Below, one piece after another: positions 12,744-47,927 of a stretch of DNA of 64,000 bases. The stretch comes from Candidatus Dojkabacteria bacterium (GTDB lineage: Bacteria; Patescibacteriota; Dojkabacteria; GCA-002793355), in NCBI GenBank assembly GCA_030583825.1, contig CP129477.1, positions 318,308 to 382,307 on the forward strand, in the 5' to 3' direction. The position numbers and the translations under genes are program-made. Numbering within the stretch: position 1 is the first letter of the stretch; every line of letters starts with the position of its first letter. The notes under the pieces are model-generated. The model ran no database searches. It was given only the letters and a program-made list of their open reading frames with translations, and was not told where the DNA came from.

Positions 12744-14291
12744 CTACTTTGCCGAAGGAAAAATACGATACACTGCTCCCTCGTCAGATGAAAACTCTTT
12801 TTGCAGGGATAAAATAGAGAGCACTTCATTTTCTGTTGCGAATCGCGCCTTTAATGCAAAATCATGAGAAAAGAATACCAAATATTGGTCTTCTTCGTTC
12901 ATACGAAGTCTCGAAATATTAGTGACGTATTCTTTTACCAGTGTTCCACCAACCGAATACTTTTGTGGCATTGCACGAACTCTTTTTCCACTCAGAACAT
13001 TTAAAGCCTGCGGAGCATGCGTGTAAACCACGGCATTGCCTGGAATTGAATGCCTTACATATGCGACAGTAGAAGAATGTCTCCATCCGGCCGTTGCATA
13101 CGGCAGTCCATCTCGATAGATTTCTGCAATTGCTGGAAAGGTCTGCCACGCAAAAACGACAAAAAAGTAAGCAAGAATTGCCCATTTAACGTAGAAACGT
13201 GAGTCTTTTAGCATCTGCATTGCAAGCATAATGCCAAGCAGCAACATTACCGAAATTGGAGATAAAAGTCGAAAGTCTAATGGCGTGGAGGAATCTAAAA
13301 ATAGAATAGAAAAGAACACAACAGCAACGTAAAATAGTGAAAATGTGAGCGGAATCCAAAATCTCAGCACTTCTTTAATTTTGACATGCTCACGCTGATA
13401 CAAAATAAAACCGGCAAATAATGTTGCGACTATTCCCCAGAAAAAGACATGGACAGAAATTGAGCTGATAATATCAACAAAAGGTGCAGGAAGTATCCAT
13501 GAAAAGAACGTTGTTGCTCCTTCAGTCAATTTTTCGAAAGGAATTAGTGTAAACCCAAACTCTCGAACGCTTTCTGTCGCACCAAATATACGAGCAATCC
13601 CGTACCATACTACAATTGGAAGGCCAACAATTGCCGAAATCATTGCGCTAAATTTCAGTTTCTCTTTAATAGGTAACGTAAATCCTACCCAAAGAACAAA
13701 TAACAAAAATGGAAGAAAGACAATACCAACGTACCGAACAATCATTGCGTAGCCCCATATGCCGGCAGCAACGAGAAGTCCCCGTTTACGTTGTTTTTGT
13801 ACTGCAACGACAGTTGCCAGCATTCCCGCAACAAGAAGGAATAGAAACAATGGCTCACTCCACATCATAGAGAAAATTCTGAAAACACCCGGAAGAATAA
13901 TACCTAGTGATTGAATTGCAATTGTTAATGGAAGCGATTTTGTTAGTCTGAATGCAAGCAGTCCAATACACAGCAAAAAGCCAAAGAATACGGCTGCATT
14001 AAGAAACACAAAACCGTCTTTAGGATCAAGAAAAGGAATAATTGAGAGCGCAAGGCTAACTCCCGGCGGATAATGTGTTTGCAATTCGGTTTCTCCTGTC
14101 ACAGTATCGGCGACAATACCCTCTCCCTGGCGTAAATTACGGGTCATGGAGACGTAGGCGAGGGAATCCTGCGTGATTCCCGAGCCGAATCTAGTGAGAA
14201 GCAACAATAGAAATGTTCCAATGAGCGGGGCGATGCAAATCGCCACCATGAAAAGAATTTGTTTTGCACGTTTGGGAATCCGCTCGTTCAT
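12744..14291 (-). CDS. GT-C fold glycosyltransferase-like polytopic membrane protein (ArnT/PMT-like), paralog of 25439..26965
   Basis: more than 10 TM helices; N-terminal GxGITxDSLxYxSxxRNLxxGxG loop; divergent from a GT2 polyprenol-phosphate sugar synthase-like gene. Confidence 0.5.
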   Translation of the reverse strand: MNERIPKRAKQILFMVAICIAPLIGTFLLLLLTRFGSGITQDSLAYVSMTRNLRQGEGIVADTVTGETELQTHYPPGVSLALSIIPFLDPKDGFVFLNAAVFFGFLLCIGLLAFRLTKSLPLTIAIQSLGIILPGVFRIFSMMWSEPLFLFLLVAGMLATVVAVQKQRKRGLLVAAGIWGYAMIVRYVGIVFLPFLLFVLWVGFTLPIKEKLKFSAMISAIVGLPIVVWYGIARIFGATESVREFGFTLIPFEKLTEGATTFFSWILPAPFVDIISSISVHVFFWGIVATLFAGFILYQREHVKIKEVLRFWIPLTFSLFYVAVVFFSILFLDSSTPLDFRLLSPISVMLLLGIMLAMQMLKDSRFYVKWAILAYFFVVFAWQTFPAIAEIYRDGLPYATAGWRHSSTVAYVRHSIPGNAVVYTHAPQALNVLSGKRVRAMPQKYSVGGTLVKEYVTNISRLRMNEEDQYLVFFSHDFALKARFATENEVLSILSLQKEFSSDEGAVYRIFPSAK

Positions 14292-17080: not shown

Positions 17081-18166
17081 ATGAAGAGATCATTTCTGCC
17101 CCTGGGAGGTTTACTCCTAATGGTCTTTGTTGCAGGCGTATTCGCTAGCTCCGTAAGCGCAGCAACTTTTACAGAGTTTACAGTTCGACCATCTCGTATA
17201 GAGACATCAGCAACGGACGTAAACTTTTTAATTAAACTTGAACCGGCATCTACTGCCACAGAAGACGCAATCAACGTCATCTTTGGTACAGGATATACAG
17301 TTGACGGCACTGCCTCAAACATTACGGTTAACTCAACTCTTGGAACACTCCAAAGCTGGGACGCTGAATGTGATGCAGCAGTACCAAGCATCGGTGCAAC
17401 AGCAGCTTCGGTTGCAGGCCAAACAGCATCGTTTGCTTCAGGCGACTTAGACACCGGTACAACATACTGCTTCTTAATTACAGCAGGTGTTGATAACCCA
17501 TCTTCCACAGGAAACTATCCAATGACTGTCGAAACAGAAGAATCAAGCGCAATTGTTGACTATGCAATTGTTATGATGCCAGCAGTTGACGACGACGAAG
17601 TTGTCATTACGGCAGCAGTCGCTCCATTTGTTCGCTGCGATGTTGATACAACAGCAGGCACAAACAACAGCATTGACCTTGGCGTTTTGCAGTACGGCAC
17701 AGTGACATCTTCAAGCACACTTGATACACCAGATAACATTCGTGTTTACGGTGGAACAAATGCTTCAGAAGGTATGACTTGGTACTACAGAAGCGATGCT
17801 TCATTCAATGGTTTGCGATCAACAACAGGATCTTACACATTGACAGGTGCTGACGCAGAAGGAACTCTCTCTGCAACAACAGCAAACTGTGCAGGTGGAA
17901 CTCCATGTTACGGTATTTACTACAGTGGCACGAGCTCAACAGTGACAGGATCAATTACCGTTGATACCGACTATACAGGCTTAACAGCAACAACAGCAGT
18001 TGGGCCAATGCGAACTGATATTTGGGGCGATGCAATTGCATCAAGCTCAGCAGCAGTCGCAGGTGCAGAAATTGTGTTTAACGTAAACGCAACAGCATCG
18101 GAACAGGCACCAGCAGCAGTTGACTACACAGATACTTTGATTTTTACGTGTAAAGCTGACTTGTAA
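17081..18166 (+). CDS. secreted protein, family member A1 (signal peptide; C-terminal …AAVDYTDTLIFTCKADL)
   Basis: cleavable signal peptide ending SVSA/ATFTEF; Thr/Ser/Gly/Ala-rich beta-type composition; C-terminal 19 residues shared with 18285..19391 and 21478..22650. Confidence 0.6.
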   Translation: MKRSFLPLGGLLLMVFVAGVFASSVSAATFTEFTVRPSRIETSATDVNFLIKLEPASTATEDAINVIFGTGYTVDGTASNITVNSTLGTLQSWDAECDAAVPSIGATAASVAGQTASFASGDLDTGTTYCFLITAGVDNPSSTGNYPMTVETEESSAIVDYAIVMMPAVDDDEVVITAAVAPFVRCDVDTTAGTNNSIDLGVLQYGTVTSSSTLDTPDNIRVYGGTNASEGMTWYYRSDASFNGLRSTTGSYTLTGADAEGTLSATTANCAGGTPCYGIYYSGTSSTVTGSITVDTDYTGLTATTAVGPMRTDIWGDAIASSSAAVAGAEIVFNVNATASEQAPAAVDYTDTLIFTCKADL

Positions 18167-18178
18167 CCGTTTTATGTA

Positions 18179-18215
18179 AGATGGGGAGGGGTATACTCTC
18201 CTCATCTTCTTTTTT
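18179..18215 (+). terminator. rho-independent terminator (10-bp stem with one G-U pair, followed by TCTTTTTT)
   Basis: inverted repeat AGATGGGGAG / CTCCTCATCT followed by a T-run. Confidence 0.5.
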
Positions 18216-18284
18216 ATGGAGAGCGTTTGCCAATTAAATAATGAGTTTGGTGCGTTGTACATTGCAAAAGAATAAGAATATATA

Positions 18285-19391
18285 GTGATGAAAATATTGC
18301 TTGAAATTATGAAACAGAAAAAAGACTTTTCTCTGCGGTTAATTTTGGCATTTCTATTTGCATGTGTTTGTATTTTTATTTTTTCTCAATCAAAACCTAC
18401 TTCTGCTGCAACATTTAGTGAATTCTCTATTCGATCGTCACGTATCGAAGTATCACAAGCCGATGTACAGATTCTGGTCAGATTTACACCTGATTCAATT
18501 GCTACCGAAGATGAACTCCGAATAACCTATGCTCCAGGCTTTGTTGTTGATCCTACGCCAGGAAACCACAGCGACTATCCATATGGTGCAGGCGACTGGG
18601 ACGGAATTGAATGTAACTCGACGCTAGGGCTTGGAACTCCCTCAGTTTCCGGCCAGGAACTTACCTACACTGTTCCCGACTTGTCAGATGGTCAATACTA
18701 TTGCTTTTTGATAACGGGCGGTATTGATACGCCATCTTCCCCAGGAAACTACCCAATTACAGTTGAAACACGTGAATCAGGCGTGACTATTGATTACGCA
18801 GTATTATCCGTTCCTATCGTAGATAACGATGAAATCACTATGACTGCTGCAGTTGGAGAATTCGTACGATGCGATGTAACAACCGCAGGAAACGATAACT
18901 CTTTAAACTTAGGAACATTACAATACGGAACTATTACACAGTCAGGATCTGGCTTCTTTTCAGGAGAACGATTATACGTACAGGGAGGAACAAATGCTCC
19001 AGAAGGAATGTCTTGGTACTATCGAAGCGATGCTCCGTACAACGGGCTTCACTCTGCAACAGCAAACTATACGCTTGAAGGAGCATCTACAGCATCGAAT
19101 ATGTCTGCTACCACTATCAGTTGTGGCCCAACAACTCCATGTTACGGTATAGTATTTAGTGGCATGTTTGGTTTTGATATGGGTGCACCGAATATTGATA
19201 TAGATTTTGGCGGTGCCACACATATTGGCCCAATGACAACTAATATTTTTGGAGAAAGAATCGCGTATACCAATGGCCCAGCAGCGGGACTAGAGATTCA
19301 CTTTTGGGTACTGGCAACTGCAGCAGAAGATACTCCCGCCGCAAATGACTACACAGACACACTTATTTTTACTTGCAAAGCCGATTTATAA
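18285..19391 (+). CDS. secreted protein, family member A2 (paralog of A1; C-terminal …ANDYTDTLIFTCKADL); start may be at the Met at 18309
   Basis: N-terminal SAATFSEFSIRSSRIEVS… aligns with the A1 sequence SAATFTEFTVRPSRIETS…; shared internal block G(M)(T/S)WYYRSDA and shared C-terminus. Confidence 0.6.
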   Translation: MMKILLEIMKQKKDFSLRLILAFLFACVCIFIFSQSKPTSAATFSEFSIRSSRIEVSQADVQILVRFTPDSIATEDELRITYAPGFVVDPTPGNHSDYPYGAGDWDGIECNSTLGLGTPSVSGQELTYTVPDLSDGQYYCFLITGGIDTPSSPGNYPITVETRESGVTIDYAVLSVPIVDNDEITMTAAVGEFVRCDVTTAGNDNSLNLGTLQYGTITQSGSGFFSGERLYVQGGTNAPEGMSWYYRSDAPYNGLHSATANYTLEGASTASNMSATTISCGPTTPCYGIVFSGMFGFDMGAPNIDIDFGGATHIGPMTTNIFGERIAYTNGPAAGLEIHFWVLATAAEDTPAANDYTDTLIFTCKADL

Positions 19392-19468
19392 CTATGAAGA
19401 TTTTTTATTAATGAGTTTATCTACTTTAGGTAAGCTCATCCGTAAAGAATTATTTAAAAGGGAGAGAA

Positions 19469-20620
19469 ATGAGTAAAAGTTATGTAGAAAAAGCAGCAGC
19501 ATTCATTGTTACGCAGCTTGCAGTCTTATTATTTTTAATTGCTCCAGTGGCAGCGCAATCAACATCGAATACCACTGGAATCATCGTCTCTCCTCCGTCG
19601 TTGCAATTTAACATTGAAAATGGCGGTCAGGTTACTCGAACATTACGCGTGACAAACCAGCGTAAAGAAAGAGATACATTCACAGTTTCAACCAGACAGA
19701 TCGGTATTGACCAGTACGGCGGATACTTTACTCCCGAAAGTGCATTAAGTGATTCACGTAGCACATTTGAAAAGCAGGGATATATTTCGTTCTACCCTCA
19801 GACATTTGACCTTGAAGTCGGACAATCTCAGGACGTAACTGTTATATTTGACCTTCCGGCAAACCTTGAAACAAGCGGCTATTACCTCGAAATTGCAGTA
19901 ATGTCGAAAGTTATTACCCCAGGTGGTTCTCCTGACGGTAATGTAGGTGCTGCTGCAGAAGTCGCTATTCCTATCGGAATGAACTATATCGGAAGCGGTA
20001 CACAAAAGCGACTGCTCGAAGTTATGTACTTTAACACTGTTGAAAAATCTCTCATTCCAAAGTTGGAAACTCCATCAGGACGAGAAGAATACATAAAAAC
20101 GGTAACCTCACAGAAAAAGCGGGAGCTATGGTTTAGTTTTGCACCAATTTACTTTACAGCGTATGTTCAGAATAAAGGAAATGTGAATGTTTCCCCTGCA
20201 GGAAGCATTTTTATTGCACGAGATCCAAGCTTTTCAGACCCGATTGCCGAAGTTCCTTTAGATAAGGACGGGAAATTCGTTTTCTCAAACGCAGGACGCC
20301 TCATTGTTACTCAGTGGCCAGGCGGCTTTATCGAGGTTGACCATGATGGAAAGATGAAAATTAACTGGAACCAATGGAATCATATTCGTTTTGGAAAATA
20401 CTACGCTCAACTCAACCTTATTTGGGATGATGTAAACGGCAAAGCCTTTAAAACAGAGGTTATTAGTTTCTGGGTCTTCCCATGGCAGCTAATTCTTGTC
20501 ATAATTTTACTAGCGGCACTTATTGTTGGATACTTTCATTTCAAGCCATTCGGCAAGAAAAAGGCAAAAAGCTCTCAAAATGACGGCACAAAGAGAAAAA
20601 AGACAACAAAAAGTAAATAG
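19469..20620 (+). CDS. DUF916/CscA-like cell-surface anchor protein (signal peptide, extracellular domain, C-terminal TM helix, Lys-rich cytoplasmic tail)
   Basis: signal peptide; N-terminal IIVSPPSLQFNIENGGQVTRTLRVTNQ pattern; C-terminal WQLILVIILLAALIVGYF followed by a KKKAK…KRKK tail. Confidence 0.5.
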   Translation: MSKSYVEKAAAFIVTQLAVLLFLIAPVAAQSTSNTTGIIVSPPSLQFNIENGGQVTRTLRVTNQRKERDTFTVSTRQIGIDQYGGYFTPESALSDSRSTFEKQGYISFYPQTFDLEVGQSQDVTVIFDLPANLETSGYYLEIAVMSKVITPGGSPDGNVGAAAEVAIPIGMNYIGSGTQKRLLEVMYFNTVEKSLIPKLETPSGREEYIKTVTSQKKRELWFSFAPIYFTAYVQNKGNVNVSPAGSIFIARDPSFSDPIAEVPLDKDGKFVFSNAGRLIVTQWPGGFIEVDHDGKMKINWNQWNHIRFGKYYAQLNLIWDDVNGKAFKTEVISFWVFPWQLILVIILLAALIVGYFHFKPFGKKKAKSSQNDGTKRKKTTKSK

Positions 20621-20644
20621 CACTAATTAATTGCAACATATTCT

Positions 20645-21520
20645 ATGGATCAGAAAGATATCGTTATTGCGCCTTCTTCGTTTACGCTAACAGTTGCTCC
20701 CGGAGAAAATGCACAAATACCTGTAACAATTACTAATAATTCAGATACTGACATTGTGTTTACTGTGAGCTCTGCTCGGTTGCCGATCGCTGCTGCAAAA
20801 GAAAAGAAGCTGGATTTACAGCAATATGAAGATGAGGAAACATCGTGGATTGCAAGTACGCCGTCTTTTTCGATTCAAAAAGGAGAAACAAAAACATTAC
20901 AAGCGACACTAAGTATTCCCACAGGACTTTCTGATATTTCCGAATATCCTGTGCTCCTGCTCCGCCAAAGCAACGAAGGTTCAGGCCAAGTTGCTCTCGC
21001 AACAGACGTCGCAATTCCAGTATTTCTGAACCTGAGAAATGCCCAAGACAATGCAAAAACAGAAATTACACAGTTTAACGCGGCAAAATCAATTGTTTTT
21101 TCACCTGAAAACATCTTTACTGTTCAGGTAAAAAATAGCTCTGAAGGCGAAGTATTCACGCAACCAAAGGGGAAAATCTATATCTATGATAACAATGGGA
21201 CAAGGCTTTCTTCCCAACTAGACATTAATGAAAGTTTCTCACGATTGTATAAAGACCAGTCGTTTGAAGAAGTGCTCTCGTGGCAAGGGAAAAAGTCATA
21301 TATCCCCGTCTTTGGGAAATACACTGCTGTGGCCGAAATTTATACCGGAGGAACGTTTGCAACACAGAAAGTAACTGCAGTACAAACATTCTGGATTATT
21401 CCCGTATATCATATCGTTGGGCTTATTGTCGTTATTGCGGTACTTGCAGGTATCGTATTTTCTGCGTGGAAATCTGTTTACAAGTCTGCTGCAATTAAAA
21501 ATCGCAGTGAATCTGTGTAA
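20645..21520 (+). CDS. second DUF916-like protein with a C-terminal TM anchor (no obvious signal peptide)
   Basis: N-terminal IVIAPSSFTLTVAPGENAQIPVTITNNSDTDIVFTVS repeats the pattern of 19469..20620; C-terminal TM helix plus short basic tail. Confidence 0.45.
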   Translation: MDQKDIVIAPSSFTLTVAPGENAQIPVTITNNSDTDIVFTVSSARLPIAAAKEKKLDLQQYEDEETSWIASTPSFSIQKGETKTLQATLSIPTGLSDISEYPVLLLRQSNEGSGQVALATDVAIPVFLNLRNAQDNAKTEITQFNAAKSIVFSPENIFTVQVKNSSEGEVFTQPKGKIYIYDNNGTRLSSQLDINESFSRLYKDQSFEEVLSWQGKKSYIPVFGKYTAVAEIYTGGTFATQKVTAVQTFWIIPVYHIVGLIVVIAVLAGIVFSAWKSVYKSAAIKNRSESV

Positions 21521-22650
21521 TCAGTTGCTGCAGGAGAAGACTCTTCTGGTCGAGCTTTTACATACAATGCTAATCTTCCTTGATATAAAGGTGACGTACT
21601 TTCCGCAAGCTTTGTTCCATAATCGCTATCGCTGACTTGCCCGACATTATTTCCTGCTCCAGTAAACGAAGACACCACAGTTAATGGGCCAAGATATGTT
21701 TCTGCCGACGAATATTCCTGAATTCCATACCCATGCGTGGATGAAAGATCGGCTGTAACCGAAGGCAATGTATACGCTCCCGTAGATGAGAATAGTCCGC
21801 CATATTGGCTTTTTACATTCACAGTAACACCTTCGATAGCATTTGTTCCAATATCAAGCCAGATCAGGTTTGATGCTGTTGTTACTTCACCAAGGAATAA
21901 TCCTCCCAAACTAATTGTATACGGAGCACCATTTTCAGTAGATATGCCGGATGTATCGGCAATATCAAGATCAAAAGCAATTTGAGGCTCCGCCGTCGTT
22001 GTATTTGCGTGTGGCCCTGGCATAGATTCAGTAAAGTCTCCATGCAACGCTGTAAATCGAACATAGTACATTGTGCCTGGTTCCAGCCCGTACACATTAA
22101 AATTCGAAACAGTGCTCTCCCACGCAGTTTCTGTAAGGTAATCGGCAAGATCATGATTTGCGGCCGATTCGACCAAAAAAGTCGTGCCATCTACATAATT
22201 CCAAGTTGCCCATGTATTATCAGTCGTGATTTGCAATGAATATAGCGTGTCAGAAGGATTTCCCTGCGGATCAATTTCAACACGTGCGCGGTCAAAACAT
22301 CCACCTTGGCCGCATAATGCCACCATTCCGTTGGCAAGGTCGCCATCTGCACAGTCAGTGGATCCCGCACTTGTTGTTTCAAAGCAATGAACTAACGGAA
22401 TATTTGCCATCCATGTATTTACGACACCTGCGCGTGCCTGATAGTTTGATGAAGTAAATCGAACATCATTCACAAATTCGTCCATAGAAAGGTATGCTCT
22501 GTAGTTTGCTGATTGTCCCTCGCCTGCAACTGCTCCAAATGAAGGATCTTTTAATTGATAGTTTGTAGAGGATGGATCCTGCGCAAAGACCGGAACAATA
22601 AATAAAAGTGACGCAAATAGCGTGATAAAAAATGCGAGCAGTTTCTTCAT
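21478..22650 (-). CDS. secreted protein, family member A3 (C-terminal …AATDYTDSLRFLIAADL); leaderless
   Basis: signal peptide MKKLLAFFITLFASLLFIVPVFA; C-terminal motif shared with A1 and A2; TATAAT + 6 nt + ATG. Confidence 0.55.
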   Translation of the reverse strand: MKKLLAFFITLFASLLFIVPVFAQDPSSTNYQLKDPSFGAVAGEGQSANYRAYLSMDEFVNDVRFTSSNYQARAGVVNTWMANIPLVHCFETTSAGSTDCADGDLANGMVALCGQGGCFDRARVEIDPQGNPSDTLYSLQITTDNTWATWNYVDGTTFLVESAANHDLADYLTETAWESTVSNFNVYGLEPGTMYYVRFTALHGDFTESMPGPHANTTTAEPQIAFDLDIADTSGISTENGAPYTISLGGLFLGEVTTASNLIWLDIGTNAIEGVTVNVKSQYGGLFSSTGAYTLPSVTADLSSTHGYGIQEYSSAETYLGPLTVVSSFTGAGNNVGQVSDSDYGTKLAESTSPLYQGRLALYVKARPEESSPAATDYTDSLRFLIAADL

Positions 22651-22668
22651 AAGTATATTATACTATGT

Positions 22669-23526
22669 ATGATGAAAGAATTTGCAGGTGTCACAATTAC
22701 CCATCCTGAACGAGTCATTTTTCCTAAAACAAATATTACCAAGCTAGATATTGCTCAATACTACTCTCAAATTAGTGAAAAGCTGCTTCTGGAACTTATA
22801 GAGCGCCCTGTAAGCCTTGTCAGAAGCCCTGGAGGGCTCCAAAACGGCAAGTTTTATCAGAAGCACCCTTCAGAGGCCTTCCCAAAATATATTGAGCGTA
22901 TAACGATTACAGAGCGTCAGGGAGAGGGTGTGTATATAACCCTAGACGCGCAAAACGACCTCATTTTCCTTTCTAATATTGGGGTGATAGAGTTTCACGC
23001 TTGGTTATCTTCTCTGCCTGATTTAGAAGCTCCCGACCGCATTGTATTTGACTTAGACCCTGCTCCCGATGCTCCTTGGAGCAATGTTATTGACGCAGCA
23101 AAGTATATTCATGATGAATTACAGGAGCATAAACTCTTTTCTTGTATAAAAACTTCCGGGATTAAGGGGCTTCACATTGTTGTTCCTATAAAAAATACAA
23201 CATGGGAGCATTCAAAAGCATTTGCGCGCGGTATTGCCGACCACCTTGCAGAAAAGTATCCAACCAAGTTTACAACGACAATTGCCAAAGACAAGCGCGA
23301 AGGCAAAGTATTCATTGACTACCTACGTAACTCACGAGGAGCAACAAATGTTGCTGCATTTTCACTTCGTACGCACGCCGAAGCAACTATTTCATTTCCA
23401 TTTGCCTGGAAAGATCTTTCTACAGATATCCGTCCGTACATGGTAACAATGAAAAACTACGAAGACTTCACTATTCCTGAAGAGTGGAAGAAACTGTACA
23501 CAGTTTCCCAAAAGCTAATGGATTAG
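22669..23526 (+). CDS. standalone NHEJ polymerase/primase domain (LigD PolDom-like); start may be at the second Met at 22672
   Basis: LigD Pol domain pattern: VTITHPERVIFPK…TKLDIAQYY…FYQKHP…DRIVFDLDP…KTSGIKGLHIVVPI…KVFIDYLRNSRGATNVAAFSLR. Confidence 0.75.
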   Translation: MMKEFAGVTITHPERVIFPKTNITKLDIAQYYSQISEKLLLELIERPVSLVRSPGGLQNGKFYQKHPSEAFPKYIERITITERQGEGVYITLDAQNDLIFLSNIGVIEFHAWLSSLPDLEAPDRIVFDLDPAPDAPWSNVIDAAKYIHDELQEHKLFSCIKTSGIKGLHIVVPIKNTTWEHSKAFARGIADHLAEKYPTKFTTTIAKDKREGKVFIDYLRNSRGATNVAAFSLRTHAEATISFPFAWKDLSTDIRPYMVTMKNYEDFTIPEEWKKLYTVSQKLMD

Positions 23527-23527
23527 C

Positions 23528-24703
23528 TTATCCGGCTAAAAGATAGCTAAATAAACGATGGTCATCCTCCCCATTTTCCGTTTCAAACGCAAAATGCTCC
23601 TGCACCGTGTTTAATTGCGCAATTGCTACGGGATCTTCGGCGCGCAACACAGTAAATGGATGGAATTCTTCTGACTGCGCTGAATACTTCACAAGATGCG
23701 AGTATACTCTTCCAATTGGCACAGGGAGCGTAAAGTCAGCAAATCCGCTTTTGGTAAGGTGGCGCATTGTTTTTGTTGCGCCCCCACGATATCTAATTTT
23801 GCCCTCTTCGTCGTAGTACGCAAAGAAGGCATCGTTATTTGTGCGCATCCATGGAGCTACTTCATCTACGGCGACGGCAAATGCAAGCGGTTCATCGCGA
23901 TAATTTGTATCTAATCCGGTTCCAATAACATGAATTCTTTCTCCGCGCAGATAAAGTAAGGTTTGCACTAATGCACGCGCTTCTGTCAGGCCGTTTGGAA
24001 TAAATGAAATTTCATCAATGCCAACGAGGTTTCTACTGCCGTTTTTATGCTCTGCTGCGTACAATAATCTGCGCTGCAGCTGAGAATACGATACGCGCAT
24101 CGCTTTTAGTCTTCGGACTTCTTCTGCATCGTGGCCACGACCTTTTCCTCCTCTACGGCTCATGATGTAGCGCTCATCTAATACTCTCGCAATAAATGGG
24201 TGAAGTACTGTTCCTCCGGGCAAAAGCTGTTGACTGCTGACGATAAACTCGAGTAATTTATCGGTTTTGGCGGAAAACATGCCGCCAAATTCTATTTCTG
24301 AAACAGGATCTCCACCATTATCAGCGTCATTCATTTGTTCCCGCAAATCCTTTGTACAGCGCGCATTGCGAGTTGAGTGCTTTCTTTCCCATACGCTAAT
24401 TAATGTCTCTTTCTCTCCTTCTGCACGTGCTTTATACGGATCGATTGGCGAAATTAATAACGCTTGAGCCGCAATATGCTCATTCCCTTTTTGTTGCTGA
24501 ATATCTAAGTAAGAACCAACCGCGTGGGCAACAACCGCGATTTCACGAGAATCATAGCCAGCATTTGTTAAATCTTCTTCGTATGCGTCCAACCTTTCTG
24601 CAACAGGCTGATATTCTGGAATTGTGAACAAGTCATCAAGCTCGGACTTTGGATATTGGGCAAAATCACGCTCAGCGACTCCTGCAAGTACTCGTTCTGC
24701 CAT
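23528..24703 (-). CDS. thymidine-kinase-fold P-loop protein, divergent (Walker A GGMFSAKT; TK-like VGIDEISF and GLDTNYRDEPL blocks; no C-terminal zinc ribbon; 130-aa N-terminal extension)
   Basis: my own alignment to type II TK motifs (GPMFSGKS/T; IGIDEAQFF; GLD.DF…P); translationally coupled to the upstream LRR gene. Confidence 0.45.
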   Translation of the reverse strand: MAERVLAGVAERDFAQYPKSELDDLFTIPEYQPVAERLDAYEEDLTNAGYDSREIAVVAHAVGSYLDIQQQKGNEHIAAQALLISPIDPYKARAEGEKETLISVWERKHSTRNARCTKDLREQMNDADNGGDPVSEIEFGGMFSAKTDKLLEFIVSSQQLLPGGTVLHPFIARVLDERYIMSRRGGKGRGHDAEEVRRLKAMRVSYSQLQRRLLYAAEHKNGSRNLVGIDEISFIPNGLTEARALVQTLLYLRGERIHVIGTGLDTNYRDEPLAFAVAVDEVAPWMRTNNDAFFAYYDEEGKIRYRGGATKTMRHLTKSGFADFTLPVPIGRVYSHLVKYSAQSEEFHPFTVLRAEDPVAIAQLNTVQEHFAFETENGEDDHRLFSYLLAG

Positions 24704-24706
24704 AGT

Positions 24707-25240
24707 TTATTGTGATAAGTTATCTGAAGAAATAATAATTTCAATATCTTTTCGCAGAGATTGTAATTTTGTTTGCTCGGCAAGTGGCATCATATCGCGA
24801 GAAATAATCAGAATTTTCAGTGCTTTTATATCAGCAACGTCTTGAGTGGACATAATAAATTCATTATTTGCAATGTTCAGAGTTTGCAGTGCAGGTAATT
24901 CCTTTATTTGCGAAGGAAATGCTACAAAGTCATTATTGCTGATATCTAGCACTTCGAGCGAGTTAAGTTTGGAAATACCGTCCGGGAGGCTACTCAATGC
25001 ATTATTGCTAAGATTTAACTCTTTCGCGTCCGCTCTTTCAAGCACTTCCAATGGAAAAGTATCACCCACCTTGCCGGAATAATTCAGTACTACTTGCTCT
25101 GTAATCGTCGTACTTTTCGGCAAAAACAAAGAATACAGCCACACAATTCCAAAAATAATGAGTAGTGCTACGCCAATACCGAGAGATCCATGCTGTATAC
25201 CTCTTTCGAGTTTGGAAAAAGACGGAAGCCTCATACGCAT
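24707..25240 (-). CDS. membrane-anchored leucine-rich repeat (LRR) protein; start set at the internal Met to avoid overlapping the DUF1232 gene
   Basis: tandem LxxLxLxxNxL repeats (LNLSNNALSSLPDGISKLNSLEVLDISNNDFVAFPSQIKELPALQTLNIANNEF); N-terminal TM helix. Confidence 0.7.
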   Translation of the reverse strand: MRMRLPSFSKLERGIQHGSLGIGVALLIIFGIVWLYSLFLPKSTTITEQVVLNYSGKVGDTFPLEVLERADAKELNLSNNALSSLPDGISKLNSLEVLDISNNDFVAFPSQIKELPALQTLNIANNEFIMSTQDVADIKALKILIISRDMMPLAEQTKLQSLRKDIEIIISSDNLSQ

Positions 25241-25241
25241 A

Positions 25242-25442
25242 CTACGATTTTTCAGGTGAGTTTTCGTTTGAATTTTCTTTGCGTGACACAAAAAATCTAC
25301 GGATAAGCTCTATCACCAAGAGGGAAATATCGTCGGTAAGTCCCAGCGGGCCGAACAAGCTTTCAGGAATTATGTCTATTGGAAGGAGAAGATAGATAAT
25401 TGCGGCAACAAGCATCCAGTTTTTTTGAAGAAATGTCCTCAT
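25242..25442 (-). CDS. DUF1232 (YkvA-like) small membrane protein
   Basis: LLPIDIIPESLFGPLGLTDDISLL matches the DUF1232 P-x-D-x-I-P-D…G-x-x-DD motif. Confidence 0.65.
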   Translation of the reverse strand: MRTFLQKNWMLVAAIIYLLLPIDIIPESLFGPLGLTDDISLLVIELIRRFFVSRKENSNENSPEKS

Positions 25443-26965
25443 TCTTGTTTCTCTAATTTAAATATTATACCATCACGTAAGACCTTCACTGTTGAGACCG
25501 AAAGCATCGAGGCAATCTCCTTTTCTGTAGGATGTTGCGTTGAAATTGACCGAGCCGGCTTAAACACAACAATATATGTTTCCTGATTTTCATAAGTTTT
25601 TTGTAAGTGCTCCATTTCCGACGGAAAACGCGAATTTCTAGTTTTCAGCGATGTTACTTTAAACGGCAATGCCGAATTTTCTCGCTCGCCCAATACATAA
25701 ATTGCGGTTAAGGCATTTGAAAATACTTTCGCGTCTTTGGGAAGATCTTTTACTGCCGCAATTGTCTCAGAATTTTGCCATTCCGGCCCTGCAAGAAACG
25801 TACCATTCGTAAATTGATACGAGATAAGCTGCATTCCATTTATTATGACCGAGACAACCAAAATAAAGCCTACCCACTGGTACTTTTTAAAGGTATGGAG
25901 CAATTGAATAACAATCAGCACTGCAAGTGGGAACAGCGGGCTGAATATTCGGAAATCCATTGGCGTAATAGGGTCAAAGAATGTAATTGTGGCAACAATG
26001 AAGAGAATATACGCCAGACAAAGCCCGACCCAAAGCGAGATATCCTGATGTTTCCGTGCAAAAGAGATGATTTGCGCTCGGTAAGTAAATGACATAATGA
26101 TAGCGACAAGCGTGCCTAAAACCCCAACAAGCGTCGCAAGCACTGCAACAGAATCGGGCAGAGAAAATGGCAAAAACCACTGCAAAAATGTCATATATCC
26201 TTCGATAACGCGGTGGATATCCATAAAATACACATGGAATTCACGAATTGAGCTATCTTTTACAAAAAGCCACAGATACGCAACCCACGAAAGAAACGGC
26301 AATCCCACAATTCCCGCAAAAGGCATAGTCCGCAAAACACTCTCTTTCCAAGTGTTTCCCTGCTGTTTTTTCGACACAAGCAGCACAATAAAGAGTATCG
26401 GAATTAAAAAGAGCCCACTGTATCGAATAACTATGCTTATCCCCCATAAAATAGCGGTAAAGACGACAAAAGATATACGCTGAGTTCGAAGATATTCCGC
26501 AAGCAATACTGCTCCGACAATAAAAAGAACAATAAATAGCGGCTCGCTCCATCCCATCGAATGAACTGTCAGTAAATCCCGAGAAAAAAGTAGTAACCCT
26601 TGTGCAATAACCATCAATGTCAGTGATTTTGTGCGAAACAGCACATATGCTCCAAGGCCGATAACCAGCACAAAGAATGAAATAAATGCAAGAATTTGAA
26701 AAGAAAATAGGTGGTTGTCAGACAGTAGCCATAGCAAAATGCTCATAAGTGGAGGAAAATGTGTCAAAGGCTCAAAAGTTCCCGCGTTTGTAATAGTAAG
26801 CAAGCCTTTTCCCGCTTCGAGGCTACGTGCAACAGAAATATAAAATAGCGTGTCAGTTGTAATACCTACCCCCCATCGCTGCATTGCCCAGATAATTATT
26901 ATCCCAAGAATAGCTCCCGGCAAAGCAAGCAAAAGAAATTCTCGATATTTCAGGAATATTTTCAT
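25439..26965 (-). CDS. GT-C fold glycosyltransferase-like polytopic membrane protein, paralog of 12744..14291; leaderless
   Basis: shared N-terminal loop (GVGITTDTLFYISVARSLEAGKGLL…THFPPL versus GSGITQDSLAYVSMTRNLRQGEGIV…THYPPG); more than 10 TM helices. Confidence 0.5.
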   Translation of the reverse strand: MKIFLKYREFLLLALPGAILGIIIIWAMQRWGVGITTDTLFYISVARSLEAGKGLLTITNAGTFEPLTHFPPLMSILLWLLSDNHLFSFQILAFISFFVLVIGLGAYVLFRTKSLTLMVIAQGLLLFSRDLLTVHSMGWSEPLFIVLFIVGAVLLAEYLRTQRISFVVFTAILWGISIVIRYSGLFLIPILFIVLLVSKKQQGNTWKESVLRTMPFAGIVGLPFLSWVAYLWLFVKDSSIREFHVYFMDIHRVIEGYMTFLQWFLPFSLPDSVAVLATLVGVLGTLVAIIMSFTYRAQIISFARKHQDISLWVGLCLAYILFIVATITFFDPITPMDFRIFSPLFPLAVLIVIQLLHTFKKYQWVGFILVVSVIINGMQLISYQFTNGTFLAGPEWQNSETIAAVKDLPKDAKVFSNALTAIYVLGERENSALPFKVTSLKTRNSRFPSEMEHLQKTYENQETYIVVFKPARSISTQHPTEKEIASMLSVSTVKVLRDGIIFKLEKQE

Positions 26966-27025
26966 CTTTTACATGATACAACGTATGCTTTTGCACGACA
27001 AATCAGAGAGCTGTATAATGGAATT

Positions 27026-27349: not shown

Positions 27350-27535
27350 GCTCCCATTCGAAAAAAAGAGTACTCGACTTTAAACGTACATAAATGTACT
27401 AAGTCTGCGTGCTTTTTTTCTCATACTCGCTCCGTTTGACGGTGCGAACTATTACTAATAAATGTTCTGTATTAAAAATTTCGCCTCACCTTCGTTCCGT
27501 ATCAAAAATTTCCTACCGATTCACTGTCATTTCTT
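27350..27535. repeat. intergenic repeat element, copy R3
   Basis: shares the blocks AGAGTACTCG, CTGCGTGCTTTTT, CTCGCTCCGT and ATTTCGCCTCACCTTCG(T/C)TCCG with R1, R2 and R4. Confidence 0.7.
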
Positions 27536-27947
27536 AACCCAGCTTTGATGTGATTAATGATTTATCCCAATCCAGTGTAAGTGGTGAAAGGAGTTTCATG
27601 AGCTCAATGCCGGCGACTGTTTCTACTGCTCCGTTCATAAATACGCACGATACTTGTCCAAGGTTTCTGACCAATTGGGAATTTTCCTGCTCGACAACTG
27701 AGAGATCTACAAGAAATGTAAATGCGGAAACTGTCCGTTCATCTGCAAGTACCATTGTGCTCAAAAAGCCGTCCGTAAATCTAAATTGTGGCAACAACGT
27801 TTTTGGAAATGCAATCCCTAACGAAAATCCGGTATCAAGCAGTAAGTCATACTTTTTCTTGTGAGGAAGCACGAGTTCTCCTGACAAACGTGGGTGATCA
27901 GCCTGGCCAAAACTAAGTGATAGTGACGAAAATGTGAGCGTATTCAT
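27534..27947 (-). CDS. retropepsin-like (clan AA) aspartic protease domain protein
   Basis: LLLDTGFS motif resembling the D-T/S-G-A active site; 137 aa. Confidence 0.45.
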   Translation of the reverse strand: MNTLTFSSLSLSFGQADHPRLSGELVLPHKKKYDLLLDTGFSLGIAFPKTLLPQFRFTDGFLSTMVLADERTVSAFTFLVDLSVVEQENSQLVRNLGQVSCVFMNGAVETVAGIELMKLLSPLTLDWDKSLITSKLG

Positions 27948-27950
27948 GGT

Positions 27951-28175
27951 CTAGGATCTTCGACGTTTTTTAATCCGTTGTGCAGTCCGTCGGTCAATAA
28001 TGACGACATCTTTCACTTTCTGCTTTTTGGAAAGCTTCTTGACTGCGTCAGGAAGCGATGACCCCACCGCACGTTTACGAGTCTTTATATCATAGACTGC
28101 GACATTCCAGTCTTTTTTCAGGCTGTTCACGTAGGAAATAAAGGATCTAAAACCTGAGTAAGGTCGTTTATGCAT
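27951..28175 (-). CDS. small basic hypothetical protein (start set at ATG 28175, after TATACT + 6 nt; the ORF track begins at TTG 28214)
   Basis: leaderless pattern; Lys/Arg-rich C-terminus. Confidence 0.35.
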   Translation of the reverse strand: MHKRPYSGFRSFISYVNSLKKDWNVAVYDIKTRKRAVGSSLPDAVKKLSKKQKVKDVVIIDRRTAQRIKKRRRS

Positions 28176-28256
28176 ATTCTCAGTATAGCACTTTTCTCCG
28201 TTTGTGACTTGCAAATGACTCGGTAAAGATACGATTTAGCAGTCTTGGGGGACAAT

Positions 28257-29524: not shown

Positions 29525-30871
29525 CTACTTCTTTAGTTCGAAGTAGTCAACAATTGTTTTGGCGTAAATTTCCGATGTTTGCGGAAGTGAATCAATCGCA
29601 ACATATTCATCGTATGAGTGAACATTTCCACCGACAGGCCCTTTTACAATGACTGGAATTTTATACTTTGCAAGTAAGTTACCAACATGAGCCTGACCAT
29701 TTACGATAAGTTCTGGCTTAATATTGATCGTCGTTTGAATTGCATTAAGCACAGTTCCAATAATTTTGTCAGTTTTTTTGATAACATATCCTTCATTGCC
29801 GGCACCATAGGTCATTGTCACTGAAAATTCAGGATCTTGCTTTTTTAACTTTTTAATCACTTCATTAATTTTTGCATCAACCTGCTTTCTCGAAAGATCC
29901 GGCGGAATTCTTGTGTCAATATCTATCACACATTCGTCAGGAACAACGTTAATTGCATTTCCACCTTCAATAATGGCAGGCGTTATACGTGAACCAAACC
30001 AGAATAAATCATACTTTGACTTTGGAAATGTGATCATATCAAGCTCTCTAATCAATGCTGCAGCTTTTGTAATCGCATTAATTCCGTAATGAGTTCTACT
30101 TCCGGTGTGAGCAGCTTTTCCTTTTACTCGAAACTTATAGCGATGATACCCTCGTGATCCAATTGCCAATTCGTGGGCATTTCCTGCATAGCCAACAATA
30201 CCGGCCTCTACATCAATTCCGCGATCGAGTGTGCTCTGCATACCAACATACTGGCCATTTTGTTCTCCGCCATCGAATACAAGCTCTACACGAACCTTAT
30301 GCTCATCTACATACTCTCTAAGCGCAAGTACCGAGTAAATCATAGCGACAATACCAGCTTTACAATCGGCTGTGCCACGTCCATACATTTTTCCATTTTT
30401 AATAAGCCCATCATGCGGAGGATATGACCAACGGTCTGGATCTCCCACAGGAACGGTATCAAGCGGGCAATCAAACAACAAGCCCTTTTTCGCATATCCA
30501 AACGTTGCGTGTACTGTTGAGGATTCTCCTTCGCCATACATAACAGTACGAAGTCCCATATTTTCAAGCGTTGCCTTTAAGAACTTTGCGAGATTTTCTT
30601 GTGACTCAGGAATGTCTGCTTCTGATGGCATTGCAACCAGCCTTTGCAGCAGGTTGACCATGTCATACTTCTTAGACTGACAAAACTTTGTAACTTTTTC
30701 TTCAAGCTCGAGTGCATCTTTTTGGAAGTAGCGCTCAAGCGCAACGTCGGAAATAAGAAATTTTCTCCCGACACGATTTGCAACTAGCTTACCTCTTCTG
30801 ATTTCTCGCTGAATCGTGCGAGTACTTACTTTTAGCTTTTTAGCTATATCAGTGACCGAATATTCTGCCAT
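29525..30871 (-). CDS. fusion of an excisionase/MerR-type HTH domain and an M20 family metallopeptidase (ArgE/DapE-like); leaderless start at MAEYSV
   Basis: HTH: YSVTDIAKKLKVSTRTIQREIRRGKL; M20: GRGTADCKAGIVAMIY plus downstream His/Glu metal-ligand blocks; TACAAT + 6 nt + ATG. Confidence 0.7.
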   Translation of the reverse strand: MAEYSVTDIAKKLKVSTRTIQREIRRGKLVANRVGRKFLISDVALERYFQKDALELEEKVTKFCQSKKYDMVNLLQRLVAMPSEADIPESQENLAKFLKATLENMGLRTVMYGEGESSTVHATFGYAKKGLLFDCPLDTVPVGDPDRWSYPPHDGLIKNGKMYGRGTADCKAGIVAMIYSVLALREYVDEHKVRVELVFDGGEQNGQYVGMQSTLDRGIDVEAGIVGYAGNAHELAIGSRGYHRYKFRVKGKAAHTGSRTHYGINAITKAAALIRELDMITFPKSKYDLFWFGSRITPAIIEGGNAINVVPDECVIDIDTRIPPDLSRKQVDAKINEVIKKLKKQDPEFSVTMTYGAGNEGYVIKKTDKIIGTVLNAIQTTINIKPELIVNGQAHVGNLLAKYKIPVIVKGPVGGNVHSYDEYVAIDSLPQTSEIYAKTIVDYFELKK

Positions 30872-30941
30872 GCTGTAATTGTACTTTCGCGACAGCAACA
30901 AGTCAATACGAACATATGGGGAGAAAACTACGGTCGCCAAA

Positions 30942-38487: not shown

Positions 38488-40416
38488 TTATTTTTCATCC
38501 CATACCCACACTCCGTTAAACTCCTTCATGTTGCGGATATGCTTAATTCTTTCAATCATGACAGAAGATGGGCCGTCGTCTTCAAGCTGAGCAAATAGCT
38601 CCAACGCAGTTTCAAAGTCTTTCTGCTGATACGCCAAAAGTGCTTTCACGTATGTTGAGGAAAGCTCTAAATTTTCGTGAGAATATCTGAGTGGCTCAAA
38701 TATCGCAACAGGATTCTCTTTTCCTTTAACTTGCACAATGTCAAGCTGGCGAAAGACGATTTTTCCATCTAAATCTGTTCCTAATCCTTTTACAGTCTGC
38801 TCAGAAACAATAATTGCTGACTTATACTTTTTCGTCAGCCCTTCAAGTCTTGAGGCAAGGTTTACTTCGTCTCCCAGCACTGTATAGGTAAAACGACGCT
38901 TACTGCCGACATTTCCTACAACCATATCTCCCGTGTTTATTCCGATTCCCATAGATAATCCGCGCCCCTTCTTCATGCTGCGGTTCATTACTTTGAGTGC
39001 TTCGGTCATATCAAGCGCTGTCAGCACTGCGTGCAATGCATGTTTAGAATCGTTCACAGGAGCATTCCAAAACGCCATAATCGCGTCACCGATATATTTA
39101 TCAATTGTTCCACCGTGCATTAAAACAACCTCTGACATGCCATCAAGATACGTGTTAAGCAACTCGACAAGCTCTTCAGGTTCCATTTTCTCAGAAAGCT
39201 GAGTAAATCCACGGATATCACTGAATAGAACGGTCATATTTCGACGATCTCCTCCAAGCTTAAGCAATGCCGGCTCTTCAATAATTTTATTCAAAATATG
39301 AGGATTCACATACTTAGCAAAGCTATCGGAAATAACGCGATTCTTACGCTGCACTTCCAAGTATCTGACAACTGTTGTGACAATATATTGGGTAATAAGC
39401 AGGAGAATAATCGAAATGACAGGTACAATTACTCCAAATTCATATAAGACAATACTAATAATAAATGCCGCTATCAACGAAGAAATCAATGTAGCAACAG
39501 CCACAATAGTCCTCTGGTTTTTATAGATTAACGAAAGTACAAAGCCCGCTACTGCGACGGCAAGGGTTACTATCCAATATGGAACATACGAAAAGGACAC
39601 ATTTTGTAACAATGTATTCACTGCCTGAGCATGAATAAACACACCGGGAATTTTATTTCCAAATATATCTATGAACGTATCCGACAAATTTGATGCAATA
39701 TCACTTGTTGTTGCGCCAATAAGCACAACTTTATTTTTAAATGTTCCAGGCTCAACGACATTATTAAGCACATCCGCAGCGCTAATAACCTGAAACGGTG
39801 CTCTCGAGTAAGAAACACCAAATTCACGTGATGGAGTCACAGCATCTGCTTGAGCTGCCGCACATTCGCGCGCAGACGGATTTCTATATAACGTGTACAG
39901 TGCCTTTGAAAATGACTCTACACATCCGCTTGCCGACGTAAATTTGCTATAAATTGTCCTGACTTTGCCGTCTACATCAGTTGAAACATTCACAACTCCA
40001 GGAACAATATTGTTCCCCGAAAATTTTGACAAATATAAAGCATCATCCTGAACTTTTGTGCTTACAACAATGGGAACTCCGGCATTAAGCAATGCTGCCG
40101 AGAGAGTCTCATCTCCAGAACGGGAATCAATAAATAAAATGTCTATACCGATGACACGAGGATCATCCTGCGCAATGCGGGAAACAAGCGAAGCAGTTGT
40201 TTCTCTTGGCCAAGGCCAAGGATGTCCACCCTGCAATGTGGCATCATCTATGCCAATAATAACGATTTCGCCACGAACCGGTGTTTCTCCTTGTAACAAA
40301 TCGGTAAAAAACGTATTAACTTTGTGCAAAAATGGCACACTGAGTAAAATCGCGACAAAAATTGTCGAAATTATGACAATGAACCCTATGTAATATTTCT
40401 GTAAGACTTTTGTCAT
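38488..40416 (-). CDS. CHASE2 sensor-domain adenylate/guanylate cyclase (class III)
   Basis: class III cyclase core VLFSDIRGFTQLSE…KYIGDAIMAFWNAP; N-terminal TM helix and periplasmic sensor domain, then 3-4 TM helices. Confidence 0.85.
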   Translation of the reverse strand: MTKVLQKYYIGFIVIISTIFVAILLSVPFLHKVNTFFTDLLQGETPVRGEIVIIGIDDATLQGGHPWPWPRETTASLVSRIAQDDPRVIGIDILFIDSRSGDETLSAALLNAGVPIVVSTKVQDDALYLSKFSGNNIVPGVVNVSTDVDGKVRTIYSKFTSASGCVESFSKALYTLYRNPSARECAAAQADAVTPSREFGVSYSRAPFQVISAADVLNNVVEPGTFKNKVVLIGATTSDIASNLSDTFIDIFGNKIPGVFIHAQAVNTLLQNVSFSYVPYWIVTLAVAVAGFVLSLIYKNQRTIVAVATLISSLIAAFIISIVLYEFGVIVPVISIILLLITQYIVTTVVRYLEVQRKNRVISDSFAKYVNPHILNKIIEEPALLKLGGDRRNMTVLFSDIRGFTQLSEKMEPEELVELLNTYLDGMSEVVLMHGGTIDKYIGDAIMAFWNAPVNDSKHALHAVLTALDMTEALKVMNRSMKKGRGLSMGIGINTGDMVVGNVGSKRRFTYTVLGDEVNLASRLEGLTKKYKSAIIVSEQTVKGLGTDLDGKIVFRQLDIVQVKGKENPVAIFEPLRYSHENLELSSTYVKALLAYQQKDFETALELFAQLEDDGPSSVMIERIKHIRNMKEFNGVWVWDEK

Positions 40417-40420
40417 AGTT

Positions 40421-41461
40421 CTACCTTGAGTTAATTCCTCTTACTGCCTGTGTTACTGTCGGCGTAGGAGTTACTGTTCCTGATCCATTCGGCACTTTTC
40501 CTAATGAATTCAGAATTCCTTTGAGTGATTCTGCTTCCTGTTCCGTAAGCGTACCATCACGGCAAATTACTTCCAAAGCTGCTCTAAATTCTTGAATTGT
40601 TGCAAGATCCTTTTGCGTGACACCTCGAGCCTTCATTTGTGCAATTCTTTGGTCAAAGTAGTCTGCTGTCGGCTGAAATGGCGTACATGATTTATCAGAT
40701 ATTGTAATATCAATTGGCACATCGCCAGTGATTTTTATCTGAAATTCCACCTTTTTTTGAATTGCCTGCACTTTTACTGATTTAATTTTCTGCTTTATTT
40801 GCTCACGATCTAATGTTTCAAAATTGGAATCCAACTGTTTGTTATACAAGAACCATTCATGTTTTTTAAGCTCTTCGGGGATATCCTGAATATCAAACCC
40901 TTGCTTCTCGCCAAACTCATTCACAGACGTGAGTTGCCCTTCCAAGAGCACTTTTACTTCCATAAGCTGACCACTTTCATTTTTCTGCTGAACATCTACG
41001 CTATGTTCAACGACATAAATGTCGGTAATATTTGTTACTTCAATGCCCAGTACTGTTCCACGGACAGTTGCGAGCGCAGTCGGAGTATTCACTTTATACG
41101 CTCCCGAGCCGATATTTCTGACTCTATTCCACGTTTTACCAATGAATTGCATGACATCAATGCCTTCAGCGGTGTAAGTGACTTGGATTTCAGTATTTTT
41201 GTCTAATGTCATCAATGAATTATTAGGAAACAACACATGCCCTTTTCCGGAACCGGTTTTTACAAATGTGCCACTTTTAACTGTTGTTTCATCACTTGTT
41301 ACTTCGACATATTCGGCATCTTGGGCAGATTTTACATACATAGTTCCATCTTCACGAAGTACAAGAATATCTTCTGCTTTGCGATTAGCAACAACAAGAA
41401 GCATCACAAGACCAATACCACATACAACGAGTAGAAACACAGGAAAAATAATCTTATTCAT
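40421..41461 (-). CDS. FecR-domain membrane protein (partner of the CHASE2 cyclase)
   Basis: FecR-like block YKVNTPTALATVRGTVLGIEV; N-terminal TM helix. Confidence 0.55.
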   Translation of the reverse strand: MNKIIFPVFLLVVCGIGLVMLLVVANRKAEDILVLREDGTMYVKSAQDAEYVEVTSDETTVKSGTFVKTGSGKGHVLFPNNSLMTLDKNTEIQVTYTAEGIDVMQFIGKTWNRVRNIGSGAYKVNTPTALATVRGTVLGIEVTNITDIYVVEHSVDVQQKNESGQLMEVKVLLEGQLTSVNEFGEKQGFDIQDIPEELKKHEWFLYNKQLDSNFETLDREQIKQKIKSVKVQAIQKKVEFQIKITGDVPIDITISDKSCTPFQPTADYFDQRIAQMKARGVTQKDLATIQEFRAALEVICRDGTLTEQEAESLKGILNSLGKVPNGSGTVTPTPTVTQAVRGINSR

Positions 41462-47902: not shown

Positions 47903-47927
47903 ACAGACTATTATACTGTTTTTAAAT

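Follow-up and report, generated by a model that had tools for sequence, protein, structure and literature searches.

We examined a 64-kb stretch of chromosomal DNA (hereafter the window) from a metagenome-assembled genome of Candidatus Dojkabacteria, which belongs to the candidate phyla radiation (CPR), and found that one of its genes encodes a thymidine kinase-like (TK-like) protein that profile comparison and structural modelling firmly support as a genuine, strongly derived homologue of TK1, not an ordinary tdk product. The gene is the last of four consecutive minus-strand genes—encoding a glycosyltransferase C (GT-C)-superfamily membrane protein, a DUF1232 protein, a leucine-rich repeat (LRR) protein and the TK-like protein—that converge with a plus-strand gene for a LigD-type polymerase domain (PolDom), an arrangement first set out in a preliminary description of this DNA and reproduced by our map of open reading frames (Table 1). 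The GT-C and TK-like proteins are 100 % identical to NCBI proteins QY314_01805 and QY314_01790 of a Dojkabacteria genome. That description further likened the LRR and P-loop proteins to a split sensor resembling nucleotide-binding leucine-rich repeat (NLR) proteins; this claim of a new sensor system does not hold, and the object of interest is the single TK-like gene, a variant within a known enzyme family. From sequence and modelling evidence we judge it probable that two unrelated functions lie side by side at this locus: a set of envelope genes, and a TK1-derived nucleoside kinase that would serve salvage.

The relatives of the TK-like protein form a small and divergent family. HMMER, run exhaustively over 1.84 billion representative proteins, returned only 32 members, about 26 of which are full length (360–447 amino acids) and match along the whole protein, including its N-terminal part. 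All named members (WKZ30485.1 and MCA9379110.1/A0A955I578) are from Dojkabacteria, and three others carry the label 'thymidine kinase' in IMG. A word-index homology search recovered one relative from the single protein and two from a 27-sequence profile; two scans of GTDB genomes and one of metagenomes found only ordinary short thymidine kinases (L007, L008 and L019–L021) and no further loci of the family, and our literature searches found no description of it. The family is a rare, lineage-specific descendant of TK1, so far seen, among its named members, only in Dojkabacteria, a candidate phylum with tiny genomes.

The homology to TK1 is firm. An alignment of 27 members, which underlies the family profile, the conservation counts given below and the better of two AlphaFold2 (AF2) models, yielded a profile that matches TK1-type thymidine kinase structures in the PDB at 3.8e-15, and 25 of the 27 members touch the Pfam TK model. 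Comparison by hhalign with a small TK1 alignment, in whose preparation an E. coli Tdk sequence was used, gave a probability of 99.2 % (E 3.4e-19) and paired residues 133–316 of the TK-like protein with residues 11–167 of human TK1. The AF2 model built from two sequences only was unusable (pLDDT 40); that from the 27-member alignment is predicted with high confidence (pLDDT 90.9, pTM 0.89), and a Foldseek search with it returned TK1 for every one of the top 50 PDB matches (E down to 2e-9; target-normalised TM score 0.61–0.77). Among the 16 best matches in a library of viral folds, 13 are named, 12 of these as 'thymidine kinase', and in PHROGs the protein has only a weak TK match. The preliminary description had doubted that this was an ordinary full-length thymidine kinase, and rightly so: the fold and profile comparisons point to TK1, but the protein scores 16.6 bits against Pfam TK (PF00265; gathering cut-off 20.6) and 37.1 bits against NCBIfam NF003296 (cut-off 183), with the sub-threshold matches spanning residues ~137–274. 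These scores, together with a missing zinc site, rule out an ordinary tdk.

The modelled protein shares with TK1-type kinases (PF00265; human, Ureaplasma, Bacillus and Thermotoga) an alpha/beta P-loop core and a fold that includes the lasso region (TM score ~0.7), along with the P-loop Lys/Thr, an (I/V)-D-E-x-x-F block, a G-L-D-x-(D/N)-(F/Y)-R block, an A-x-x-T-x-R lasso start and, probably, a pocket tyrosine (Y340). The motifs GGMFSAKT, VGIDEISF and GLDTNYRDEPL, on which the first suspicion of a TK relationship was founded, are all present. The reference residues in human TK1 are Glu98 as catalytic base, Phe101 as stacking residue, T163/R165 in the lasso and Y181 in the pocket. In the family alignment the P-loop residues G140, M142, K146 and T/S147 are kept in 27/27 members, as are D/E230 and E231, which hhalign pairs with human D97 and E98; F234, paired with F101, is kept in 26. 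L264 (27/27; approximately human L124) opens the G-L-D-x-(D/N)-(F/Y)-R block together with G263 (26/27), and is followed by Y/F268 (24/27), equivalent to TK1 F128, and R/K269 (25/27), equivalent to the arginine of 'DFR' in bacterial TKs. In the lasso, T312 and R314 form a Thr-x-Arg motif kept throughout the 27 sequences and paired by hhalign with human T163 and R165. R183 and Y340 are likewise invariant; R183 lies in the beta-hairpin region, where its exact TK1 equivalence is ambiguous, and Y340 probably corresponds to human Y181, to judge by its position and the order of the predicted strands. The two catalytic residues singled out beforehand as diagnostic, the glutamate of the ID(E) block (Glu231) and the arginine at the start of the lasso (Arg314), are thus both invariant.

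This pattern bears on whether the protein might be a catalytically dead TK1 relic with a structural or regulatory role, as could be suggested by its non-canonical Walker A motif (Ala or Glu in place of Gly), its lost zinc site and its scores below family thresholds. The invariance of the Walker-A Lys/Thr, catalytic Glu, lasso Arg and pocket Tyr at 17–43 % identity is what would be expected of an active enzyme, and the P-loop of E. coli Tdk (SAMNAGKS) is also non-canonical; we consider a dead relic very improbable.

Around this conserved core the protein has been extensively remodelled. At 391 residues it is about twice as long as TK1-type kinases (~190–230 amino acids), and where those enzymes brace the lasso with a four-Cys zinc ribbon, the TK-like family does without one: the four-Cys pattern occurs in no member, only the first Cys position survives (17/27, absent in the window protein), and in the window protein Cys is missing everywhere beyond residue 115 and from the C-terminal half. 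Also setting the family apart from TK1-type kinases are a family-specific N-terminal helical domain of ~130 residues with conserved motifs (RDF..P, HA..SY, AQFLLP..IDP and WE..H..RN), a lasso ~10 residues longer, with a conserved G-F-x-D-x-x-L-P-V-x-I-x-R motif, a C-terminal helical tail of ~50 residues, and a second Walker-A glycine that is not conserved. The absent zinc ribbon, the N-terminal extension of some 130 residues (the hhalign match begins at residue 133) and the Ala in Walker A (Ala145) had all been recognized in the preliminary description, and each stands.

CPR bacteria, Dojkabacteria among them, probably live at the expense of other cells and are unable to make nucleotides; the enzymes with which they capture scavenged nucleosides are therefore central to their biology. 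Our analysis shows the homology, fold, residue conservation, gene neighbourhoods and organism of the TK-like protein; its catalytic activity and substrate, and the role of its extra domains, we infer. We propose that it is most likely a cytoplasmic, lineage-specific ATP-dependent (deoxy)nucleoside 5'-kinase, in which the P-loop (G140-x-M-x-S-x-K146-T147) would bind the phosphate donor and Mg2+, Glu231 would deprotonate the 5'-OH, and Arg183 and Arg314 would stabilize the transferred phosphate. Phe234, Leu264, Tyr268 and Tyr340 would line the nucleoside pocket, with the family-specific helical domain packing on the core, and the kinase would replenish dNTP pools from salvaged thymidine, deoxyuridine or a related nucleoside. 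A salvage role would fit WS6/Dojkabacteria genomes, which are reported to be without nucleotide biosynthesis pathways, both purine and pyrimidine de novo (PMC5113843).

With a remodelled lasso and an added N-terminal domain, the protein may act on another substrate. In TK1 the lasso reads the base. A TK1 descendant with a new, longer base-recognition loop and an extra domain might have a different substrate range or regulation—acting, for example, as a broad kinase for deoxynucleosides, ribonucleosides or modified nucleosides—and might be the chief route by which nucleosides scavenged from hosts enter metabolism in the phylum, possibly replacing canonical tdk; we regard this fuller version as a possibility, though an unlikely one.

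To place the gene in its genomic setting we compared 12 independent TK-like lineages, the window included, within the flanks fetched for each. The contexts fall into three classes. Class A loci have a common backbone of an HTH_17–Peptidase_M20 gene, DUF8173, a gene for an 87-residue protein (p87), one for a 137-residue protein (p137), a variable slot and the TK-like gene. In the window the slot is filled, after a divergent gene for a transmembrane (TM) protein, by GT-C, DUF1232 and LRR genes, with PolDom convergent; in L001 by GT-C and LRR; in L017 by LRR alone, with PolDom located downstream, two genes from the TK-like gene; and in L013 by DUF1232 and a gene for a GIY-YIG/UvrC_M protein, while in L009 p137 directly precedes the TK-like gene with nothing in between. 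In class B (L006, L011, L012, L015, L016 and L018) the order is FolD, MGMT or CYTH, a divergent DUF2085 gene and the TK-like gene, the last always divergently paired with the DUF2085 membrane-protein gene and two genes from folD; where the contig is longer (L015, L016 and L018) a gene for the CCA-adding enzyme comes next, directly or one gene on. Class C (L022) has a lone TK-like gene amid genes on the opposite strand. The TK-like gene is an old, vertically inherited chromosomal gene, and the GT-C, DUF1232 and LRR genes fill a variable slot between p137 and the TK-like gene in one clade, class A.

The backbone genes have features of their own. All five class A loci have the genes for p137 and p87 immediately upstream of their variable slot; p137 contains the sequence 'LLDTGFS', a D-T-G motif recalling retropepsin-type aspartic proteases, and has no Pfam match. 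The fusion of HTH_17 with Peptidase_M20/M20_dimer is unusual for an M20 peptidase and is kept in all class A loci that reach far enough upstream.

The preliminary description treated the four genes as a translationally coupled operon; they are not a conserved unit. The complete set occurs in the window species alone: GT-C is found in 2/12 lineages (orthologue in L001), and DUF1232 in 2/12 (orthologue in the same syntenic slot of L013; absent from L001, L009 and L017). PolDom is near the TK-like gene in 2/12, the window and L017, and is absent at the other family loci; as a convergent neighbour it does not belong to the unit. Genome compaction and local synteny account for the four-gene operon as a system and for the adjacency of PolDom.

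Close packing of the genes is likewise no guide to function. The reported spacing or overlap of 0–4 nt is real, the GT-C/DUF1232 junction being an ATGA overlap of 4 nt and the next two junctions gaps of 1 nt (DUF1232/LRR) and 3 nt (LRR/TK-like); the contact between the stop codons of the TK-like and PolDom genes is also real, at a distance of 1 nt, not the 2 nt first given. Across the window, however, 15/33 same-strand neighbour pairs lie <=5 nt apart and 5/13 convergent pairs abut or overlap, with a coding share of ~90 %. The tight packing of the four genes, like the meeting of the TK-like and PolDom stop codons, is thus the genomic norm and carries no information on functional coupling. The TK-like gene may be co-transcribed with the genes upstream. 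Base composition is flat along the window, Rfam and tRNA scans of it came back empty, and the genes around the cluster are ordinary chromosomal ones (sigma factors, RsgA, RsmB, GroEL, TGT and pyruvate kinase). We reject a mobile or defence island in view of the flat composition, the conserved chromosomal synteny and the lack of defence matches.

The adjacency of LRR and TK-like genes requires separate consideration. When every fetched locus was scanned by phmmer and by motif, an LRR gene upstream of the TK-like gene turned up in only three of the 12 lineages, the window species, L001 (orthologue E 1.9e-32) and L017 (E 1.4e-20), with spacers of 3, 16 and 14 nt, respectively; the pairing thus recurs in two diverged relatives, and the preliminary description is not refuted on this count, the TK-like proteins of these three lineages being only 26–43 % identical. 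Persistence at such divergence speaks for a functional two-component module, in which the two proteins would make up either a sensor of the split NLR-like or defence kind or a receptor at the surface coupled to a nucleotide-metabolising effector. The LRR protein, however, consists of positive charges, a single N-terminal TM helix, about four 23-residue repeats and a conserved C-terminal PLAEQTKLQ, and since the positive charges precede the anchor (the positive-inside rule), its repeats are most likely extracytoplasmic and the kinase cytoplasmic. Like NLR/STAND sensors with LRRs, including bacterial Avs, the locus encodes an LRR protein and a P-loop NTPase side by side; unlike them, its NTPase has a TK1 fold, not that of STAND, NACHT or NB-ARC (Pfam finds no NACHT/NB-ARC-type STAND domain in the TK-like protein), its LRR protein is short, membrane-anchored and probably extracellular, and it has no effector domain. 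PADLOC gave no match for the four operon proteins, and in nine of the 12 lineages the fetched flanks contain no LRR gene, which leaves most loci of the family without the pairing; shared synteny within class A explains the adjacency where it occurs. Because the LRR would face outward, the fold is that of TK1, no defence model matches and the LRR gene is missing from 9/12 lineages, we consider an NLR-like or otherwise coupled sensor very improbable.

DNA-repair genes also recur in the vicinity. Besides PolDom in the window and L017, five class B loci have an MGMT/DNA_binding_1 gene at a distance of one gene, an Adenine_glyco (Tag) gene is found in L016, and GIY-YIG/UvrC_M and DNA_alkylation (AlkD-like) genes in L013. 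This recurrence, and a remodelled lasso and new N-terminal domain that could change the substrate, might suggest that the TK-like protein was recruited to DNA repair or the handling of damaged nucleotides—phosphorylating a modified nucleoside or the 5'-OH end of a polynucleotide, or supplying dNTPs locally for repair synthesis—and not to bulk thymidine salvage. Most of the repair neighbours, though, lie on the opposite strand or are separated by other genes; their counts are inflated by shared synteny and come down to ~3–4 independent events; FolD and the CCA-adding enzyme recur beside it just as constantly; and the residues lining the small nucleoside pocket of TK1 are conserved. We find a repair-linked role improbable.

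For the reading we prefer, a TK1-derived salvage kinase beside unrelated envelope genes, several observations are nonetheless uncomfortable. Its scores lie below the curated TK thresholds; the second Walker-A Gly, Ala145 here, is variable in the family (Ala in 13 members, Gly in 5, Glu in 4, Ser in 3 and Asp in 2); and the equivalent of TK1 Asp58/Arg60 is ambiguous, with HMMER and hhalign alignments in disagreement. With the zinc site gone and the base-reading lasso remodelled, the substrate may not be thymidine. The recurrence of MGMT, Tag, GIY-YIG, AlkD-like and PolDom genes near the TK-like gene, and the retention of the LRR gene beside it at the divergence given above, which may exceed inertia, weigh on the same side.

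The family shows that structural zinc can be lost from the TK1 scaffold, otherwise very uniform, and two extra modules added to it, with the catalytic residues kept. If the enzyme is active, it would be a compact system in which to test how nucleoside specificity is set by the lasso, with a bearing on nucleoside analogues that TK1 activates, and the 'hypothetical protein' annotations in Dojkabacteria would be corrected.

The remaining genes of the cluster would, on our preferred reading, constitute a variable cell-envelope or surface insert. The GT-C protein is hydrophobic throughout and has no Pfam match itself, and its profile has no sequence relative in the PDB; the assignment draws indirect support from its profile homologues (E 1e-51 to 1e-43), which carry PF13231 (PMT_2) or PF02366 (PMT). 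The paralogue mentioned in the preliminary description is indeed present in the window, also polytopic, 28 % identical and with no Pfam match of its own. Asp38, after TM1, is invariant in three aligned paralogues and orthologues and may have a catalytic role. As in systems of GT-C O-mannosyltransferases or ArnT-like enzymes with surface partners, a polytopic GT-C-related gene lies directly upstream of genes for a small membrane protein and an LRR surface protein; here, by contrast, the protein falls below Pfam detection, and we identified neither lipid-carrier nor sugar-donor genes next to it. GT-C enzymes have their active site on the outer face, so an outward-facing LRR protein fits its GT-C neighbour; that the LRR protein is the substrate of the GT-C protein is only a guess. 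The original DUF1232 and membrane-anchored LRR calls are upheld by Pfam matches and, for the latter, by the N-terminal TM helix.

A leaderless promoter had also been proposed ahead of the GT-C gene. The TATCAT hexamer does end 7 nt before the ATG, as part of a sigma-70-like match, but promoter-like matches in the region number 11 against 12.2 expected from shuffled sequence; because they are no commoner than in shuffles, the promoter is unproven and a conjecture. In L001 the corresponding start lies ~36 nt from a -10-like hexamer, an arrangement not obviously conserved, and we have set the match aside as evidence.

The convergent PolDom is a bona fide LigD primase-polymerase domain that scores above the family cut-off and carries an FDLDP-type metal motif. 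In this it resembles its counterpart in bacterial non-homologous end joining (Ku plus LigD); it differs in standing alone, with neither a ligase nor a nuclease domain. In agreement with the preliminary description, no Ku or ATP-dependent ligase domain is found among the window's open reading frames of >=120 amino acids covered by our Pfam scans or by precomputed annotation.

Table 1. Features of the 64-kb window, in window coordinates
Feature	Position	Strand	Length	Details
TK-like P-loop kinase, TK1-derived (putative)	23528..24703	-	391 aa	WKZ30485.1, QY314_01790, annotated 'hypothetical protein'; predicted N-terminal helical domain ~1-130, TK1 alpha/beta core ~133-285, remodelled zinc-free lasso region ~287-343, C-terminal helical tail 344-391
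LRR protein, membrane-anchored	24707..25240	-	177 aa (from ATG)	LRR_8 1e-9, LRR_4 1.5e-8
DUF1232 small membrane protein	25242..25442	-	66 aa	PF06803 8.8e-12, 45 bits (cut-off 23)
GT-C (PMT/ArnT-like) superfamily polytopic membrane protein	25439..26965	-	508 aa	QY314_01805
Sigma-70-like match	26973..27001	-		TTGTCG-17-TATCAT; 9/12 consensus match, ends 7 nt before GT-C ATG
Standalone LigD primase-polymerase domain	22669..23526	+	285 aa	PF21686 1.2e-78, 264.6 bits; TIGR02778 280 bits (cut-off 214.7)
GT-C paralogue	12744..14291	-
p137	27534..27947	-	137 aa
p87	27951..28214	-	87 aa
HTH_17-Peptidase_M20/M20_dimer fusion	29525..30940	-
AlkZ-like glycosylase	4580..5704
HhH-GPD glycosylase	55043..55861
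Exo_endo_phos nuclease	58620..59393
Five predicted secreted/anchored proteins	17081..22650		361-390 aa, 291 aa	Signal-peptide-like N-termini, no Pfam matches
CHASE2-cyclase/FecR pair	38488..41461	-	642 aa, 346 aa
Acyl_transf_3 and Big_5/Peptidase_C39-like gene pair	42909..47950	-	960 aa, 719 aa

Elsewhere in the window, three further genes are related to DNA repair, encoding two glycosylases and a nuclease. Three of the five predicted secreted or anchored proteins are paralogous (p390-like), and the five may be surface or adhesin proteins of an episymbiont-type bacterium. A gene for a CHASE2–adenylate/guanylate cyclase lies immediately downstream of one for a FecR-domain protein, a signalling pair uncommon in reduced CPR genomes. 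Finally, two large genes overlap by 1 nt, one encoding an Acyl_transf_3 protein and its partner a protein that combines Big_5 Ig-like repeats with a Peptidase_C39-like domain.

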